64,000 nt of DNA, from NCBI GenBank assembly GCA_964607485.1, contig CAZSKP010000005.1:1-64000 (forward strand). The letters are read 5' to 3'. Position 1 is the stretch's first letter. Every line of letters begins with the position of its first letter. The notes below the pieces were generated by a model. That model had not been told where the DNA came from. It saw nothing but the letters and a program-made list of their open reading frames with translations, and ran no database searches. This DNA comes from an uncultured bacterium (GTDB lineage: Bacteria; Abyssobacteria; SURF-5). The translations under genes were made by a program, and so were the position numbers. Below, one piece after another: positions 3,757 through 19,229 of this stretch.

Positions 3757-5508
3757 TTGGAAGCTCGAACCTTGGAAAACGTGAAAGCCGTAATCGCCGC
3801 CGGAGGACTCAAGAGCCGCCATATCCATCCTGTCCGCCTCTCAAAGGCGCTCTTCCCCGTCGCAAACAAGCCCGGTGTCTTCTATACGCTTGAGACGCTG
3901 AGCGAGGCCGGAATATCCGAGGCATTTCTCGCAATCGGCAACAACGAAGTCGAATCGGTTCATTTTTCCTCGGACGGTTTTAACGGATTGTCCGTCCGCA
4001 CCGTCGTCGAAGATTACCCCAGGGGAACCGCTGGGTGCCTCAAGCAGGTCGAGGAAAATCTGAATGGGCATACGGTGGTTCTCATCGCGGCCAGCCTGGT
4101 GTTTTTCGCGAGAGAAGACCTGGAGGAAATGATACGGTTTCATCGCGAGACCGGCGCCGACCTCACCGTGGGACTCATGCCCGCCGCTGAGGGAGAGACG
4201 GATACCGAGAGAGTCATCCTCGGGCCGGACAGCGAGGTGGACGGCGTTGTGCAAATTCATTCCTCCATGAATCGGCGCTCCAATCTGAAAACTTCGGGCA
4301 TATATGTGATGGAGTCGCATGTGCTCGGACATGTCAACCCCATGGGGTTCGTCGATATGAAAGAGCAATTGCTCCCCAAGCTTCGCAGCTCCGGGCTGAA
4401 AATGGTGGGGTGGAGCCATAAGAGATACAGCTCTAATGTTCGGACCATGGGGGATTATCTGCGGATAAACTTCGAGCTTCTCAAGAACTACGAGCTTGCA
4501 AAGCGGCACTTGAGAGGATACGAGGAAATAAAAAGCCAGATTTGGGTGGGTCGTAATGTGCACATCAGCCCGTCCGCGACCCTTGTCCGCCCGCTCGTCG
4601 TCGGAGACGATGCGCGCATAGATGAAAACGCCACGGTCGTCGGACCGTCCGTCATCGGAGACAGATGCGTTCTGGAGAGGAACAGCTTCATCAGGGAGAG
4701 CATCTTCTGGCCCGACAGCACGGTGGGTGCGAATTTCGAGGTGGAGAAGTGTCTGGTGAGCGGAAAGGCGTTCAGCTCAGAGAACAGCCACTGCCGCGAG
4801 ATGATCGTGCTGGACGGGGAGTGTTACCTCGACGGTATAAGCGCCATGGCCGACGGAACGGTCATTCGCAAGGTTGTCCGAAGGCAGACCCAGGGCTGGG
4901 CGCGACTGAGGGAAAAGGCCTACCCGATACTGAAAAGACTGTTCGACGTCGTCCTATCGACAATCTTCCTGATTCTCTCCGCTCCGCTTTTCGCGCTGAT
5001 CGCGCTCGCCGTAAAGCTCGATTCCAGAGGCCCCGTCTTCTTCATTCAAACCAGATGCGGCAAGAATGCGAAGCCTTTCCGGATGATAAAGTTCCGGTCC
5101 ATGGTTAAAGACGCAGAGGAATTGAGACACACGGTCGAGCATCTCAACCGGTCTGACGGTCCGATGTTCAAGATATTCGACGACCCCCGCGAAACCCGCG
5201 TCGGCCGCTTTCTCAGGGCGAGCAACCTCGATGAGCTTCCGCAGCTCATAAACGTCCTTCGCGGACAGATGAGCCTCGTGGGGCCGCGTCCCCTCTCGAT
5301 GGGGGAGATGAAATACAACCCCCACTGGAGAGACGCCCGCCTGCAGGTGATGCAGGGCATCACCGGACTCTGGCAGATTAAGGGGAAGGACACCCACTTC
5401 TTCCACGACTGGATTCGCTACGACCTGAAATACGCCGACGAGCGCTCCATGTGGCTGGACATAAAAATAATCTTCCTCACCCTCCTGAAAGTCCTCAAAA
5501 TCTTCTGA
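3757..5508 (+). CDS. NDP-sugar pyrophosphorylase-like domain plus left-handed beta-helix, fused to a bacterial sugar transferase (WcaJ/WbaP-type phosphoglycosyltransferase)
   Basis: N-terminal AVIAAGG..LFPVANKP and GTAG; hexapeptide repeats; C-terminal KRLFDV, KFRSM, DPRETRVGRFLR, LDELPQLINVLRGQMSLVGPRP, GITGLWQ; TTG start. Confidence 0.88.
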   Translation: MEARTLENVKAVIAAGGLKSRHIHPVRLSKALFPVANKPGVFYTLETLSEAGISEAFLAIGNNEVESVHFSSDGFNGLSVRTVVEDYPRGTAGCLKQVEENLNGHTVVLIAASLVFFAREDLEEMIRFHRETGADLTVGLMPAAEGETDTERVILGPDSEVDGVVQIHSSMNRRSNLKTSGIYVMESHVLGHVNPMGFVDMKEQLLPKLRSSGLKMVGWSHKRYSSNVRTMGDYLRINFELLKNYELAKRHLRGYEEIKSQIWVGRNVHISPSATLVRPLVVGDDARIDENATVVGPSVIGDRCVLERNSFIRESIFWPDSTVGANFEVEKCLVSGKAFSSENSHCREMIVLDGECYLDGISAMADGTVIRKVVRRQTQGWARLREKAYPILKRLFDVVLSTIFLILSAPLFALIALAVKLDSRGPVFFIQTRCGKNAKPFRMIKFRSMVKDAEELRHTVEHLNRSDGPMFKIFDDPRETRVGRFLRASNLDELPQLINVLRGQMSLVGPRPLSMGEMKYNPHWRDARLQVMQGITGLWQIKGKDTHFFHDWIRYDLKYADERSMWLDIKIIFLTLLKVLKIF

Positions 5509-5552
5509 ATCCCGGATTTCCATGTCTTGCATTATGAGAAGATTAACCGTTT

Positions 5553-6575
5553 CTATGAAAGTACGATTTGTTCGTATTCAATAGGCAGGGCAAACCGGTC
5601 TTTGAGTCGTTTCAGGTACTCTTCTGCGTCTTTGTCCAGGGTACCTTCACCGGCAACGATAAGGCGCGTCGCCTCCTGGGCACCCGGCCAAAACGCGTAT
5701 TCAAGCAGTTGGCCGAGCGCCTCGCGAAGACAGGCGCGCGGTGAATGAGCAGTTTTTATTTCGTAAAACCAATACCCATCATCACGACGAACCACCACGT
5801 CAATACTGGTTCCCACACCGCTCCGGTTTTCCGTGCCAACATGTTGTTCCCCGTGGATGGCCACCAGCTTGCGATAGAGCGCCCCTTGCAGTTCATTGTG
5901 GCGGAGGCTGATGTCGAGTTGTCGCTGAACCTTTGTGACTGTAGCTGACGAAGCCTTGCTCGAACATCCGGGGCGAAATGCGAACGGAGCCTCCGCCAGC
6001 GAGGACACCGGCTGAGAGCACCCGTTACTCTCACTGTACTTGTATAGGGGCAACAGGCGGTCGAAATCGTTGAGAATCTTGTCATAATCTATCTGATCGA
6101 CGCGTTGTCGCTTTCCAAGAAAGACAAACACGCCTTTCGTTACGAGCTCCGGAGGAATAGGGCCAGGAATGTAGTCGGAGCTTTGCTCCTCTTGGTAAGA
6201 ATGCCACATGCGCATGTCCTCATACAACTCGGAGTAGAGCCGCATGAACTCATTGAAAAAGGACACTTTGCGAATCAATATCTCAATCGATGTTAGTGTG
6301 CGGCTTGGCTCGAAGGAAAAGGCGACTCCGTGCCTCAGCTCGGCGACGTTCGACAGGTACTCTATGCCGATGTTGAATTGAAGTTCAGAGTGGGTTCGCG
6401 CACCGCTATGAAAGGCGTACTTTTCATAAATCGTCTGCGAACTGAAGATGCTTTTGCATGGTGGGTGAGCCAGGTCCTTTAAATCGGCTCGAATCTCTTG
6501 AAGCGAGCCAATCGCGTACGTGTGTGACCTCGAGTTAAGTTCCTTCGTGATCTTGTGAATGTCAATCGAGTTCAT
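5553..6575 (-). CDS. Putative PD-(D/E)XK restriction-endonuclease-like protein
   Basis: C-terminal IDVV..FYEIKT..REALGQLLEY nuclease motif; separate N-terminal domain with YAFH..ELQFNIG; AT-richer than flanks. Confidence 0.7.
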   Translation of the reverse strand: MNSIDIHKITKELNSRSHTYAIGSLQEIRADLKDLAHPPCKSIFSSQTIYEKYAFHSGARTHSELQFNIGIEYLSNVAELRHGVAFSFEPSRTLTSIEILIRKVSFFNEFMRLYSELYEDMRMWHSYQEEQSSDYIPGPIPPELVTKGVFVFLGKRQRVDQIDYDKILNDFDRLLPLYKYSESNGCSQPVSSLAEAPFAFRPGCSSKASSATVTKVQRQLDISLRHNELQGALYRKLVAIHGEQHVGTENRSGVGTSIDVVVRRDDGYWFYEIKTAHSPRACLREALGQLLEYAFWPGAQEATRLIVAGEGTLDKDAEEYLKRLKDRFALPIEYEQIVLS

Positions 6576-6697
6576 ATTCTATCCTAGCTATCTTAAGGTT
6601 TGCCGCTAGGCAACGCCTTCGTATAAGTCACGTCAACAGACCATGGGTCAGGCAGACTCCTCGATATGGGTGAGCACGTTTCGGAAATGTTTTGTCT

Positions 6698-8128
6698 CTA
6701 ACGCGTCCAATGCATTTCGATGTATCGGACAGCCTCTTCTATGTCAAGTTGTTCGGTCCTATTTCCTGAGCGAACGTAGAACTCCTTCGATTGCTTCAAG
6801 TGAACCGGCTTTGGGCTTGGACTGACGCTCACGCGACACACAGTTTTCCCGACGTGTGGCGGAAGCGAGACGGCCACACACTGGGAGCAAAACTCTTGTC
6901 CCAGATAATTGTGGAGAATCTGGCAGAGGTGGCGCTGGAATCTTTCATCAGTCCCGTGTTTGAAGGACCGTAAATCCTCTTCAATTCCAACAACTGCCCG
7001 ATCATCTGCAACACCGATCAATAGAGTTCCACCTTTCGAGTTCATGAACGCCGCGACGGTCTGGACGACCTCTTTCTCAAGGTCCTTATTGACTTTATTC
7101 TGTCGGAGGTCCCACCGTAAGCTCGATTTGAATTCCAGGGTATCGCTCTCGCTGTCTGCCAGTAGTTCCTCAAGTGTCGGAACCTTGGGAAGACTCTCGT
7201 AGCGGCGCAGTAGCTCCTGTAGCTTTTCGAAGACTGCCTCAGACTTCGCGGAGCCAATATGGGCATATCCACCTGCACCAATGGGGTCCGATATTCCCTT
7301 TAGCAGGGGGTAATCTTCCTCGGGTATCTTGATCTCGACCAAGGAAGCGGCTGATTTCAATTCGGTGGCGATAAGGTATGTCTTGTGGCGTCTCGCGCAG
7401 GCATAGATCTCTTCGAACAATACCGGAATGACTGGTTCGTAGTCGTTGGGGTCCTCTTCCTCCGCCCACGCCCAGACTGCTGAGGACACGACATGCTCCA
7501 GTGTGTTCTTCAATATCTTCTTTGCATCATCGAACTCGGCGCTATGCTGCAGGCACCTGGATTTCCAGATGGAAATATTGACATCTTCGTCATAGAATCC
7601 AGCCATGTCCGGTCCGGTGAGAAATGTCAATATCTTCAGCGCACCGTCAAAGTCGTTCTCCGACATCGCGATAATGGCTGCAGTGTAGAGGTAGACGTGG
7701 ATATGGAGCAGAAAAGCGCTATCAAGCTGATTTGAGCTGTCTAAGTGATACCTCTTATTGAGCCATTGAGAGATTTTCGAAAGAGCGATATTGTATTCTT
7801 TGTACCCCCTAATCAGATCGATAATTGTACGGAAGAAGATATTGGTGATAGGGCGAAGTGTCTTGATTGCGCCAGATTGCTCCTCGTCTTCCCCATCGCC
7901 AGAGGAAAGATAGTCCATTGCGGTTAATCCTTCGGGGGAGTGCAAGTCGCAATACGGCACATTTTCAACTTCCACAGTAGCCAAATTCGCATGGCATTCA
8001 TTGCATTTCGGCGCGGTCTCATAAAGTTCGTCCACGTCGGTCTTCGTGCAGCAATCCAGACATATCTTAGCATTCCACTGATGAAAAATCCGCTCGCAAA
8101 CCTGACATACCCATGCAATTTCGGCCAT
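6698..8128 (-). CDS. Schlafen/AlbA_2 domain protein with N-terminal Cys-rich Zn-binding region and helical middle domain
   Basis: C-terminal ESDTLEFKSSLRWD..VAAFMNSKGGTLLIGVADD..FYVRSGN; N-terminal CQVC, CLDC, CNEC, CDLH; GGAGG RBS before ATG. Confidence 0.85.
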   Translation of the reverse strand: MAEIAWVCQVCERIFHQWNAKICLDCCTKTDVDELYETAPKCNECHANLATVEVENVPYCDLHSPEGLTAMDYLSSGDGEDEEQSGAIKTLRPITNIFFRTIIDLIRGYKEYNIALSKISQWLNKRYHLDSSNQLDSAFLLHIHVYLYTAAIIAMSENDFDGALKILTFLTGPDMAGFYDEDVNISIWKSRCLQHSAEFDDAKKILKNTLEHVVSSAVWAWAEEEDPNDYEPVIPVLFEEIYACARRHKTYLIATELKSAASLVEIKIPEEDYPLLKGISDPIGAGGYAHIGSAKSEAVFEKLQELLRRYESLPKVPTLEELLADSESDTLEFKSSLRWDLRQNKVNKDLEKEVVQTVAAFMNSKGGTLLIGVADDRAVVGIEEDLRSFKHGTDERFQRHLCQILHNYLGQEFCSQCVAVSLPPHVGKTVCRVSVSPSPKPVHLKQSKEFYVRSGNRTEQLDIEEAVRYIEMHWTR

Positions 8129-8458
8129 TGTCCTTCACCTCCCAAGGATCGTGCGTGGAGAAAAGCAAGCGTTGCGATCATTGCCTTGCTAGAAGCGCTC
8201 TCACACTTCCCTTCGGAACAGGGGCGATTTGGCGGTAAATTTGTTCCATCGTCGCATACATCTCCTATCATGAAAGGAAATGATCTTGTCAATGCGTAGG
8301 CGTGGGCTCCTTCGTTTTCGTCACACCTTCTCACCTACCGCAAAAGCTTTGAATGAAGTCCGCAGCTTTTCTTTCATGATGCCTCTCAGATAATCAGGGG
8401 CATAAGATGAATCGATTTATTTGTCTGAATTTGACATGCAAGCGAAGGTGGAGGGGAG

Positions 8459-8869
8459 CTACACCAGTATCCACGATATCCACGCAACGATAAGAATCCA
8501 TGGAATTGATTTACTCGTAAATCTTCCAAGCTTGCTAGCGCACTTGCCACCACCCGGCATAGGATAATGCTTGATCAGAGGTTCACATTCTTTTTTATGC
8601 TTATCGATCGACCTGTAGGCCGCACATATACCTAGAAAGGTGACGAATGCCACCAGAGCGCCAGTGAACGGTATGACACACAGAAGCCAGCGTCGCAGAG
8701 ATTCAAGAGATGTTTGATTGTTTGTCATTAACGCAAGAGATGCGAAAAGGAAGCCTTGGAAAGTGAGCATCCACGTAAGGCGGTTATTTATTAAATTTTC
8801 CTCGTGACTAATTTGCCCGGCAAGATGCTGGTGCAGGAATTTCTCATCATCATGCTCAACTACGTCCAC
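8459..8869 (-). CDS. Small membrane protein with 2-3 TM segments, resembling SLATT/RipA-like pore-type proteins
   Basis: HEENLINNRLTWMLTFQGFLF leading into TM1, then TM2 LLCVIPFTGALVAFVTFLGI and a C-terminal hydrophobic helix; GTG start after GAGGAG (ORF track starts at TTG 8899). Confidence 0.65.
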   Translation of the reverse strand: MDVVEHDDEKFLHQHLAGQISHEENLINNRLTWMLTFQGFLFASLALMTNNQTSLESLRRWLLCVIPFTGALVAFVTFLGICAAYRSIDKHKKECEPLIKHYPMPGGGKCASKLGRFTSKSIPWILIVAWISWILV

Positions 8870-9186
8870 CTTTATTCTCCTCGCCTTTCGATATGACAAG
8901 CTTACGCAATTGCCAATCTGGCGGATACAGAATACTATTATGAGTCAATAAAGTCAAACCAGAAGGGAGGAACAGAGGACAGTAGCAGAGAAGGGAATCG
9001 TTCGTCAGCGTTTGAGCGTGCCGGAGCTTTCCGAAGTGTTTGGCAATGTCTCCGAATTTCCCAATGTGCCGGATTGGCTCTGCCGGGCTGTTGCATTTTG
9101 GAACAAATTCCTCTCGGAACCGCTTTTTTTCTCGCCTCGACATCGTAACAATCTGTAAATCAGAAGCTTACGAGTGACGCCAAGTT

Positions 9187-9202
9187 TGGCACCGATATTG
9201 CT
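9187..9202 (+). promoter_or_regulatory. sigma54 promoter of clpB
   Basis: TGGCACCGATATTGCT, near-perfect consensus about 30 nt before the ATG; IHF-like AATCAGAAGCTTA at 9158-9170. Confidence 0.8.
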
Positions 9203-9231
9203 CTTTATCAGCGCTTCGGGAGGTCTATAAC

Positions 9232-11852
<2,621 letters not shown>

Positions 11853-11853
<1 letters not shown>

Positions 11854-18084: not shown

Positions 18085-18206
18085 ACGCGCGTCGTCCTCC
18101 AACTTTCACCACAAGTGAGCTTCCAGCGTAGAGAAGGGTTTCCGGCAGGCGAAAGATGTCTTCCTCCCACCCAAAACTCGGTGGAACCGAATGTCCGGGC
18201 CAAGGT

Positions 18207-19229
18207 ATGTCGATACGCGAAATGCTCGAACGCCGCGAGCACGAGTATCTTTCGCCCCGGGCTGCATTCAGCGACGCGAGCAAGGGCAGGCGCTTCCCCG
18301 TCGAAGAATGCCCGTATCGAACGAGATTCCAGCGCGACCGTGACAGGATAATTCACTCGAAATCGTTTCGCCGGCTCAAGCACAAGACGCAGGTGTTCCT
18401 GTCGCCGGCGGGCGACCACTACCGCACCAGGCTCACGCATACCCTCGAGGTGGCGCAGATCGCCCGCACGATTTCTCGCGCGCTGTGTTTGAACGAGGAC
18501 CTGACAGAAGCCATAGCGCTTGGACATGACCTGGGGCACACTCCATTCGGCCATGCGGGCGAGGCGGTCCTGAACGAGCTTTATCCCGGCGGCTTCGCTC
18601 ACAATGAACAGAGCCTCAGGATCGTCGACGAACTTGAGAACGGCAAGGGATTGAACCTGACCTTCGAAGTCCGCGACGGAATACTCAATCATTCCAAGGG
18701 ACGTTCCGACATCTTCGAGCCTGGTCGCACCGGAAAACCGGAGACGCTCGAGGCGGAAGTGGTCAGGATATCCGACAGCGTCGCCTACATCAACCACGAC
18801 ATCGACGACGCCATCAGGAGCGGGCTCATCACCGAGGCCGAGCTTCCTGTCGAATGTGTGAAGATTCTCGGAGACTCTCCCTCACACCGGATAGACGCGA
18901 TGGTGGCCGACATTGTGCGCAACAGTGCCGGCGGCAGTATCCAGATGCGCGCCGAAATCCTGGAGGCGACCAACTGTTTGAGAAATTATCTTTATGAGCA
19001 GGTGTATCCGCGCCCGGAGATTCAGGATTCGATCAGCAAAGCAAGAAAAATTCTAAAAGAAATATATTCTTACTTAGTCAACAATCCCGGCGTATTCTTG
19101 AGCGAGACGCGGCCGGCGGATTCGGACACGAATATCGAACGGCTGGTCGTGGACTTCGTGGCCGGCATGACAGACCGTTATGCTCTCGATTTCTATGAGA
19201 ATTACTTCCTACCAAAGTTAGAGATTTGA
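18207..19229 (+). CDS. dgt: Deoxyguanosinetriphosphate triphosphohydrolase-like HD protein
   Basis: FQRDRDRIIHSKSFRRLKHKTQV, RTRLTHTLEV, HDLGHTPFGHAGE, VAGMTDRYA; start at ATG 18207 is inferred (ORF track gives 18156). Confidence 0.93.
   Translation: MSIREMLERREHEYLSPRAAFSDASKGRRFPVEECPYRTRFQRDRDRIIHSKSFRRLKHKTQVFLSPAGDHYRTRLTHTLEVAQIARTISRALCLNEDLTEAIALGHDLGHTPFGHAGEAVLNELYPGGFAHNEQSLRIVDELENGKGLNLTFEVRDGILNHSKGRSDIFEPGRTGKPETLEAEVVRISDSVAYINHDIDDAIRSGLITEAELPVECVKILGDSPSHRIDAMVADIVRNSAGGSIQMRAEILEATNCLRNYLYEQVYPRPEIQDSISKARKILKEIYSYLVNNPGVFLSETRPADSDTNIERLVVDFVAGMTDRYALDFYENYFLPKLEI

Follow-up and report, generated by a model that had tools for sequence, protein, structure and literature searches.

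Bacterial Schlafens were found in 2025-2026 to be phage-triggered tRNases that take their specificity from a fused domain, and about one sixth of them carry domains to which no name has been given. The survey of Perez Taboada et al. (Nat Microbiol 2026; PMC13056530) counts 5,930 prokaryotic Schlafens (pSlfn) in which an Ex4(E/D)xK motif is conserved. Fusion to other domains is the rule there (97.1%); 55 domain compositions are named, and 1,020 pSlfn (17.2%), grouped in 558 clusters, are classed as unannotated fusions. This work adds one candidate to that picture. The protein, P0001, is encoded on the minus strand at positions 6698..8128 of a window of 64,000 nucleotides (the whole stretch of DNA that was analysed, taken from contig CAZSKP010000005.1 of an uncultured SURF-5 bacterium). 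The analysis establishes the Schlafen domain of this protein, its motif and its fold, the modular shuffling of that domain, the near-orphan state of the N-terminal module and the setting of the gene in an acquired island. P0001 is a fresh example of the known sensor-Schlafen design and not a new kind of system. What sets it apart, as far as protein comparison can tell, is a putative sensor module of which just one relative is known, a protein that ends in a different C-terminus.

The mode of action of such proteins is illustrated by RorSlfn5 (pSlfn5) of Raoultella ornithinolytica, in which a fused Ig-like domain senses a T5 tail-assembly chaperone and cleavage of tRNA anticodon arms follows. 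Mutation of the motif was reported to abolish this cleavage, the Ex4(D/E)xK residues were needed for defence, and RorSlfn5 triggers no SOS response (PMC13056530). Like P0001, RorSlfn5 unites in a single polypeptide a Schlafen nuclease with this motif and a variable fused domain. According to the description given in that paper, the nuclease of RorSlfn5 is N-terminal (E15, D20) and its Ig-like sensor C-terminal, whereas P0001 has its nuclease at the C-terminus, behind a Cys-rich and helical front; the two proteins are compared here by description. The earlier note on this DNA, which was made from the sequence alone, suggested that an N-terminal sensor may activate the cleavage of tRNA. This agrees with the paradigm published for the bacterial Schlafens in PMC13056530, and for P0001 it would hold by analogy.

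Other described families resemble P0001 in one or another of its parts. The fusions of pSlfn7 type, DUF262(GmrSD_N)-Schlafen, have in common with it a C-terminal cassette of ~184 amino acids, but P0001 gives no PF03235 match at E <= 1 and its front 290 residues are unrelated. EcoSlfn7, a member of pSlfn7 that reduced the plating of T7 ~540-fold (PMC13056530), is likened to P0001 by architecture only. The order of parts is best matched in pSlfn25, whose member NZ_AP022595.1_1499, of ~458 amino acids, is annotated as Rubredoxin-related.ATP12-like.pSlfn (PMC13056530, supplement file 21). By this structural annotation it presents, at a similar length, the same succession of zinc-ribbon, helical region and C-terminal Schlafen. 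It was not among the matches of an exhaustive search with residues 1-300 of P0001, so that the two are compared by annotation only and any relation between them would be beyond sequence detection. In pSlfn9 (pSlfn.TPR; 36 members, defence score 0.75, PMC13056530), the Schlafen domain is fused to TPR-type repeats, as may be the case in P0001, but in the reverse order, Schlafen then TPR; as named in that survey, pSlfn9 is without a zinc-finger region, and the TPR match of P0001 lies below the Pfam threshold. The earlier note did not recognise the architecture. This stands insofar as the N-terminal region has one relative by sequence, and it does not stand for the class of design, which is already catalogued both among the unannotated fusions and under the pSlfn25 label just quoted. 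A limited literature search found no description of a zinc-finger/TPR-Schlafen fusion.

Outside the bacterial Schlafens, the tRNase domains of the mammalian SLFN11, SLFN12, SLFN13 and SLFN14 and of SAMD9 have the same fold and the same active-site motif as P0001. The mammalian Schlafen N-domains are described as two-lobed, the C-lobe holding the active site, and are followed by a linker and a helicase (PMC13056530), whereas P0001 has a single AlbA_2 unit. By analogy with this two-lobed arrangement, the single unit suggests that P0001 probably needs to oligomerise. RorSlfn5 forms a higher-order oligomer. A homodimer prediction with two copies of residues 295-476 scored 0.00 and gave no verdict, counting neither for nor against such binding. 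A further comparison is offered by the phage sensors of Avs/NLR type, whose TPR-like arrays bind proteins of the phage and activate the nuclease to which they are fused. These sensors have a central STAND ATPase, and none appears in the Pfam scan of P0001.

The C-terminal Schlafen cassette

The open reading frame of P0001 is intact and encodes 476 amino acids plus the stop. It starts with ATG, with GGAGG located 10-14 nucleotides upstream, and all the strings quoted in the earlier note are present in its translation. The C-terminal effector cassette, delimited by homologue coverage, by a hidden Markov model (HMM) and by model confidence, extends over residues 295-476 (6701..7246, minus strand) and consists of linker helices followed by the Schlafen/AlbA_2 domain. 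The Pfam family SLFN_AlbA_2 (PF04326) matches residues 327-461 (6746..7150, minus strand) with 69 bits for a curated cut-off of 25.3 (E 6.5e-19), and the match was also confirmed on the genome. Scans of the whole protein against NCBIfam and PHROGs returned 0 matches each, the sole match against PADLOC is a weak pAgo one (12.8 bits) falling on the Schlafen region, and the Pfam scan detected no helix-turn-helix (HTH) or other regulator domain.

The string ESDTLEFKS (E327 to S335) holds the Ex4ExK motif, E327-SDTL-E332-F-K334 (7127..7150, minus strand), and the string GVADD (residues 372-376) holds D375 (7004..7006, minus strand), the conserved Asp behind the GG..IGV strand. In an alignment of 57 cassette sequences, E332, D375 and D385 are invariant, and at least 90% of the sequences retain E327, F333, K334, R338, W339 and D340. 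A profile built on these 57 sequences was compared with the PDB sequences. The family string gEsatlEFKS aligns with ESQSIEFKQ of SLFN11, ESASIEFKQ of rat SLFN13 (5yd0) and ESTHVEFKR of SLFN14, and IGVaDD falls on the (I/F)GVDD(K/E) of SLFN11/13/14, which places D375 on the second Asp. We take this aligned Asp to be the third catalytic acid of SLFN11/13; PMC13056530 itself mentions the Ex4ExK motif alone. The acidic motif that had been read as intact in the earlier note is therefore confirmed by conservation and by its alignment with the active-site motifs of SLFN11/13/14.

The fold agrees with the sequence. AlphaFold2, supplied with the 57-sequence alignment, models residues 300-476 at a predicted local distance difference test (pLDDT) of 85-98. 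When this C-terminal model was compared with the PDB by Foldseek, 21 matches were obtained at E <= 1e-3, starting from 4e-6. The top match is the AlbA_2 protein DIP2311 (3lmm, 4e-6), followed by the DNA-binding/tRNase domain of SAMD9 (7ksp, 9o0d); SLFN14, 5, 13, 11 and 12 are also found, and 5yd0, 7zel, 9nyy and 7cux are among the entries matched. The C-terminal AlbA_2/Schlafen domain proposed in the earlier note is thus upheld by the Pfam profile, by a confident fold and by structural matches to Schlafens and SAMD9. Sequence, profile and predicted fold together give good support to a catalytically intact Schlafen/AlbA_2 domain in the C-terminal part of P0001.

Homologues of the full-length protein were searched among 5.8 billion clustered proteins at E <= 1e-3. 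A total of 2,362 proteins match, 119 of which are listed besides the query; among these listed matches the coverage of P0001 is only 31-47% and always concerns the C-terminal part. The whole architecture was found once. The cassette HMM (residues 295-476) matches the very end of the protein in 120 of 120 rows, among which the query is counted, and delimits there a unit ~184 residues long. The cassette is a widely shuffled effector unit common to thousands of proteins. Among the matches listed, the closest relatives are metagenomic DUF262/GmrSD_N-Slfn fusions of ~705 amino acids, with 50-56% identity over the cassette only. A quick, unfinished tree places P0001 inside a subtree of 60 rows with 45 DUF262-Slfn fusions, the DUF262 label being assigned partly by length. 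One of the other genomes searched (G021) matches P0001 by the cassette only, within a protein of 453 amino acids whose front end is unannotated.

The genome that contains P0001 has a second AlbA_2 gene. It encodes 207 amino acids (G000:C39:25464-25850, minus strand; locus L051, 1318-1941), matches the Pfam family with E 1.7e-11 and the PADLOC PDC-S50 model weakly, and is flanked by two open reading frames without a Pfam family.

The N-terminal module and its single relative

The front of P0001 begins with a Cys/His-rich region, residues 8-63 (7940..8107, minus strand), which contains four pairs: C8/C11 (CQVC, 8-11), C23/C26 (CLDC, 23-26, followed by C27), C42/C45 (CNEC, 42-45) and C60/H63 (CDLH, 60-63). 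The spacers between these CxxC/H pairs are of 11, 14 and 14 residues, and 8 of the 14 Cys of the protein fall within its first 63 residues. It is followed by an acidic linker, residues 75-86, SSGDGEDEEQSG (7871..7906, minus strand), which is unstructured in both structure models, and by an all-helical region, residues 88-282 (7283..7867, minus strand), with a TPR-like core at ~135-280.

Relatives of this front are extremely rare. A word-based search with residues 1-300 recovered the query alone. An exhaustive phmmer search with the same residues, carried out on 1.84 billion representatives, yielded P0123 and P0124 besides the query, and only P0123 is a true relative. This protein of 365 amino acids matches residues 41-282 of P0001 with its residues 2-257 (phmmer E 2.9e-29; 35-36% identity by BLASTP and phmmer), and keeps C42, C45, C60 and H63 together with the whole helical region. 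P0124, a TPR-rich protein of 1,990 amino acids, matches residues 151-222 of the query only (E 5.8e-4). There is a single record of P0123, from a contig of 83 kb, and scans of metagenome contigs and viral contigs did not recover it. On the basis of this comparison, the N-terminal module of P0001 appears near-orphan but real. The conservation of ~240 residues with P0123, Cys/His ligands included, implies selection on this module.

The C-terminus of P0123 (residues 258-365, 108 residues) is unrelated to Schlafen. It is His-rich and contains RHDHGH, an R-x4-H string; it has no Pfam match at E <= 10 and no sequence match in the PDB. Language-model searches lead from it to clusters of HEPN/RNase LS toxins with scores of 0.83-0.84, a range often reached by shuffled sequences. 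The association of one N-terminal relative with a different C-terminus is what would be expected of a modular sensor that can be swapped. It might be supposed that the zinc-ribbon and TPR-like region is an undescribed portable phage-sensing module coupled to at least two effectors, the Schlafen of P0001 and the C-terminus of P0123; we hold this for rather doubtful. If true, the pair would combine a single sensor with exchanged RNase effectors, the reverse of the common situation in which one effector is combined with many sensors. In any case P0001 and P0123 constitute a small testable case of new sensor-effector combinations arising by cassette shuffling, and the picture of the Schlafens is otherwise unchanged.

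The four Cys/His pairs noticed earlier prove to be real, the last two being those conserved in P0123. In a set of 121 rows, made up of P0001, 119 relatives that bear the cassette and P0123, at least two CxxC/H pairs ahead of the last 184 residues are found in P0001 and P0123 alone, and judging from the sequences the Cys pairs of P0001 exceed chance. Pfam zinc-ribbon models reach E values of 0.4-0.8 only on this region. A hairpin is modelled at residues 51-60 with pLDDT < 50, and the zinc region is credible in neither model. Residues 8-63 are probably two zinc-ribbon knuckle pairs, which may bind zinc.

The helical part was described in the earlier note as TPR-like. Residues 82-276 are all-helical in both structure models, at low confidence, and a repeat search detected two copies of 29 nucleotides (7510..7655, minus strand) encoding EFDDAKKIL (residues 198-206) and DFDGALKIL (residues 159-167). 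These copies, at 7510-7538 and 7627-7655, are 76% identical and lie 117 nucleotides (39 amino acids) apart. Language-model searches lead from the N-terminal region to TPR and zinc-ribbon clusters with scores of 0.84-0.91; the protein-atlas leads that bear on a TPR domain score 0.84-0.88. VIA-align, applied to the low-confidence N-terminal model against 48,161 PDB representatives, aligned model residues ~135-280 with a top 50 composed mostly of TPR domains, with chains of PlcR, LGN, kinesin light chain, Hop, IpgC and PP5 among them. These structural matches are leads only, because both models are of low confidence. The helices are retained from the earlier description, and the TPR label itself stays below threshold. 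Taking sequence and models together, the front region is probably a TPR-like helical array placed behind zinc-ribbon knuckle pairs.

An acquired gene and the explanations for it

The gene of P0001 lies in an insertion of 3.7 kb (5509..9231), recognized by its lower GC content and by comparison with related genomes, which also carries the genes of P0002 and P0003. The three genes, all on the minus strand, fill the 3,723 bp comprised between a conserved sugar-transferase gene of bifunctional type (3757-5508, plus strand) and clpB (9232-11853, plus strand), beyond which FHA, MscS and dnaK genes are found. The GC content is 0.46-0.51 within the insertion and 0.55-0.63 in its flanks. In three genomes of the same family (G005, G004 and G007) the sugar-transferase and clpB genes are on one contig, ~200-290 bp apart, and the insertion is absent in 3/3 of the related genomes with this arrangement. 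In G006 the two genes occupy separate contigs with metabolic neighbours, and in the remaining relatives one or the other could not be located or lies at the end of its contig. P0001 is absent from all 9 same-family genomes. No tRNA gene, integrase, mobility gene, or flanking or direct repeat marks the insertion.

The explanation which accounts best for these results, and which we consider reasonably probable, is that P0001 is a single-polypeptide immune pSlfn whose N-terminal sensor would control the C-terminal ribonuclease. Defence, the role of the sensor and the tRNA target are inferred here by analogy with the described systems. The N-terminal ~290 residues would be a lineage-specific regulatory or sensor module. 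As the Ig-like domain does in RorSlfn5, this module may bind a protein or nucleic acid made by the phage and release the nuclease. Once free, the nuclease would cleave tRNAs in their anticodon arms, and translation would stall with a lower phage yield as the outcome.

Several results weigh against this explanation. As regards the protein itself, no full-length relative by which the conservation of the entire architecture could be judged exists among the 40 other genomes searched, and P0001 sits in the tree on a long branch (0.64) with a Shimodaira-Hasegawa-like approximate likelihood ratio test (SH-aLRT) support of 83-88 and a long-branch warning. The match to Pfam TPR_19 is subthreshold (E 0.012-0.029, 15-16 bits for a cut-off of 25), the confidence of the N-terminal models is poor (< 60 in the full-length model, a mean pLDDT of 49.9 in the two-sequence N-terminal model), and the VIA-align Z scores of 8.7-10.5 are under the noise bar of this tool for helical repeats, ~13. 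As regards the neighbourhood, neither P0002 nor P0003 nor the small open reading frames have a PADLOC match and no known defence gene is adjacent; within ~10 kb (PMC13056530 takes +/-10 kb as the range for a known defence neighbour), the PADLOC matches are only generic AAA+ ones on ClpB, a conserved housekeeping protein, and one on the dGTPase-like gene that occupies 18156-19229. In the published survey, defence in E. coli was obtained with 2 of the 7 pSlfn systems assayed, and 30.4% of the pSlfn genes, reported to have no defence neighbour, may be non-immune (PMC13056530).

The last figure lends some credit to a first alternative, in which P0001 would be a non-immune nucleic-acid-binding or regulatory protein, its AlbA_2 domain binding DNA or RNA and its zinc fingers and repeats making contacts, in a housekeeping or stress role. 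AlbA_2 domains do also bind DNA, and the fold search retrieves the SAMD9 'DBD with DNA' entry 7ksp and the RecG-related 2kyy. Moreover, the flanks of the insertion encode the chaperones ClpB and DnaK and an FHA protein, without an adjacent PADLOC defence gene. An insertion that splits an otherwise conserved gene pair is, however, a poor fit to a housekeeping role; the protein is missing from 9/9 same-family genomes, keeps the full catalytic motif and lacks HTH or other regulator domains. We regard this alternative as improbable. Still less probable is that P0001 would be an effector of defence or a toxin with a substrate other than tRNA, namely DNA, rRNA or mRNA, as might follow if its cassette derived from GmrSD-like fusions that sense DNA modification. 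The fusion of the nearest cassettes to DUF262/GmrSD_N, a DNA-directed restriction domain, and the resemblance of the neighbour P0002 to a DNA nuclease would agree with it, but the motif of P0001 agrees with those at the tRNase sites of SLFN11, SLFN13 and SLFN14, and the only bacterial Schlafen characterized in PMC13056530 cuts tRNA anticodon arms without triggering an SOS response.

It may finally be asked whether P0001 has any selected function, since a recent chimera or decaying cargo, in which an orphan front was fused by accident to the cassette, would also be seen once in 5.8 billion clustered proteins, with its cassette on a long branch and with no mobility genes or flanking repeats to define a functional element. 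The state of the gene speaks otherwise: the frame is intact, the ribosome-binding site is good, all the catalytic and core residues are kept, and P0123 shares the N-terminal module with 36% identity over ~240 residues, Cys/His ligands included. An accidental fusion of this kind strikes us as very unlikely, and the immune sensor-Schlafen remains our preferred explanation for P0001.

Neighbouring genes

Downstream of P0001, P0002 (5553..6575, minus strand) is by locus survey a solo gene; it encodes 340 amino acids and resembles the PD-(D/E)xK type. At E <= 1e-3 its family comprises 1,531 proteins, of which 119 are listed; these are 54-79% identical to P0002 over nearly the full length (~335-345 amino acids). 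The family has no Pfam domain of its own, and two of the matches listed are fused to an EVE domain. The invariant residues are D259, E272, I273, K274, Q289 and E292, with a D259..E272-x-K274 motif, and the sole match of the family profile with the PDB sequences is Cas4 (E 0.6), aligning the D..ExK stretch.

P0002 was considered as a conserved partner of P0001. Its loci were gathered by an alignment-based scan of genome contigs, a single-protein scan having recovered none, and 45 of them were obtained in Acidobacteriota, Planctomycetota, Chloroflexota, Alphaproteobacteria, Nitrospirales, Latescibacterota and others. An open reading frame with the Schlafen cassette is present within +/-5 kb in 0/45 of these loci, relatives of P0001 or P0003 in 0/45, and no neighbour family occurs in more than 4/45; the partnership was rejected. 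From its sequence, P0002 is a probable PD-(D/E)xK nuclease, so far undescribed, whose solo gene seems to move independently and is possibly a defence gene of restriction type. Its proximity to P0001 would agree with a small cargo of genes of the defence type, without proving it.

On the upstream side, also inside the insertion, P0003 (8459..8899, minus strand) encodes 146 amino acids with hydrophobic stretches from a TTG start. It matches the 8xMP family of octameric membrane proteins with 22.7 bits, below the cut-off of 30, and has no PADLOC or PHROG match. It is probably a membrane protein. The idea that the clpB site would be a defence hotspot is not supported either, metabolic genes being found beside clpB in G006, G009 and G003.

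Other genes of the region deserve mention. The dGTPase-like gene at 18156-19229 (plus strand, 357 amino acids), ~10 kb from P0001, matches the PADLOC dGTPase model with E 5.2e-82 and may be a housekeeping Dgt or a defence dGTPase. The clpB orthologue of G001 (C108:5635-8250, minus strand) contains one in-frame TGA, which may be an assembly error or the sign of a broken gene. The gene preceding the insertion (3757-5508, 583 amino acids) encodes a nucleotidyl-transferase/left-handed-helix module fused to a Bac_transf sugar transferase, and this fusion is found over nearly its full length, at 57-65% identity, in 6 of the 9 same-family genomes, with partial matches in one more.

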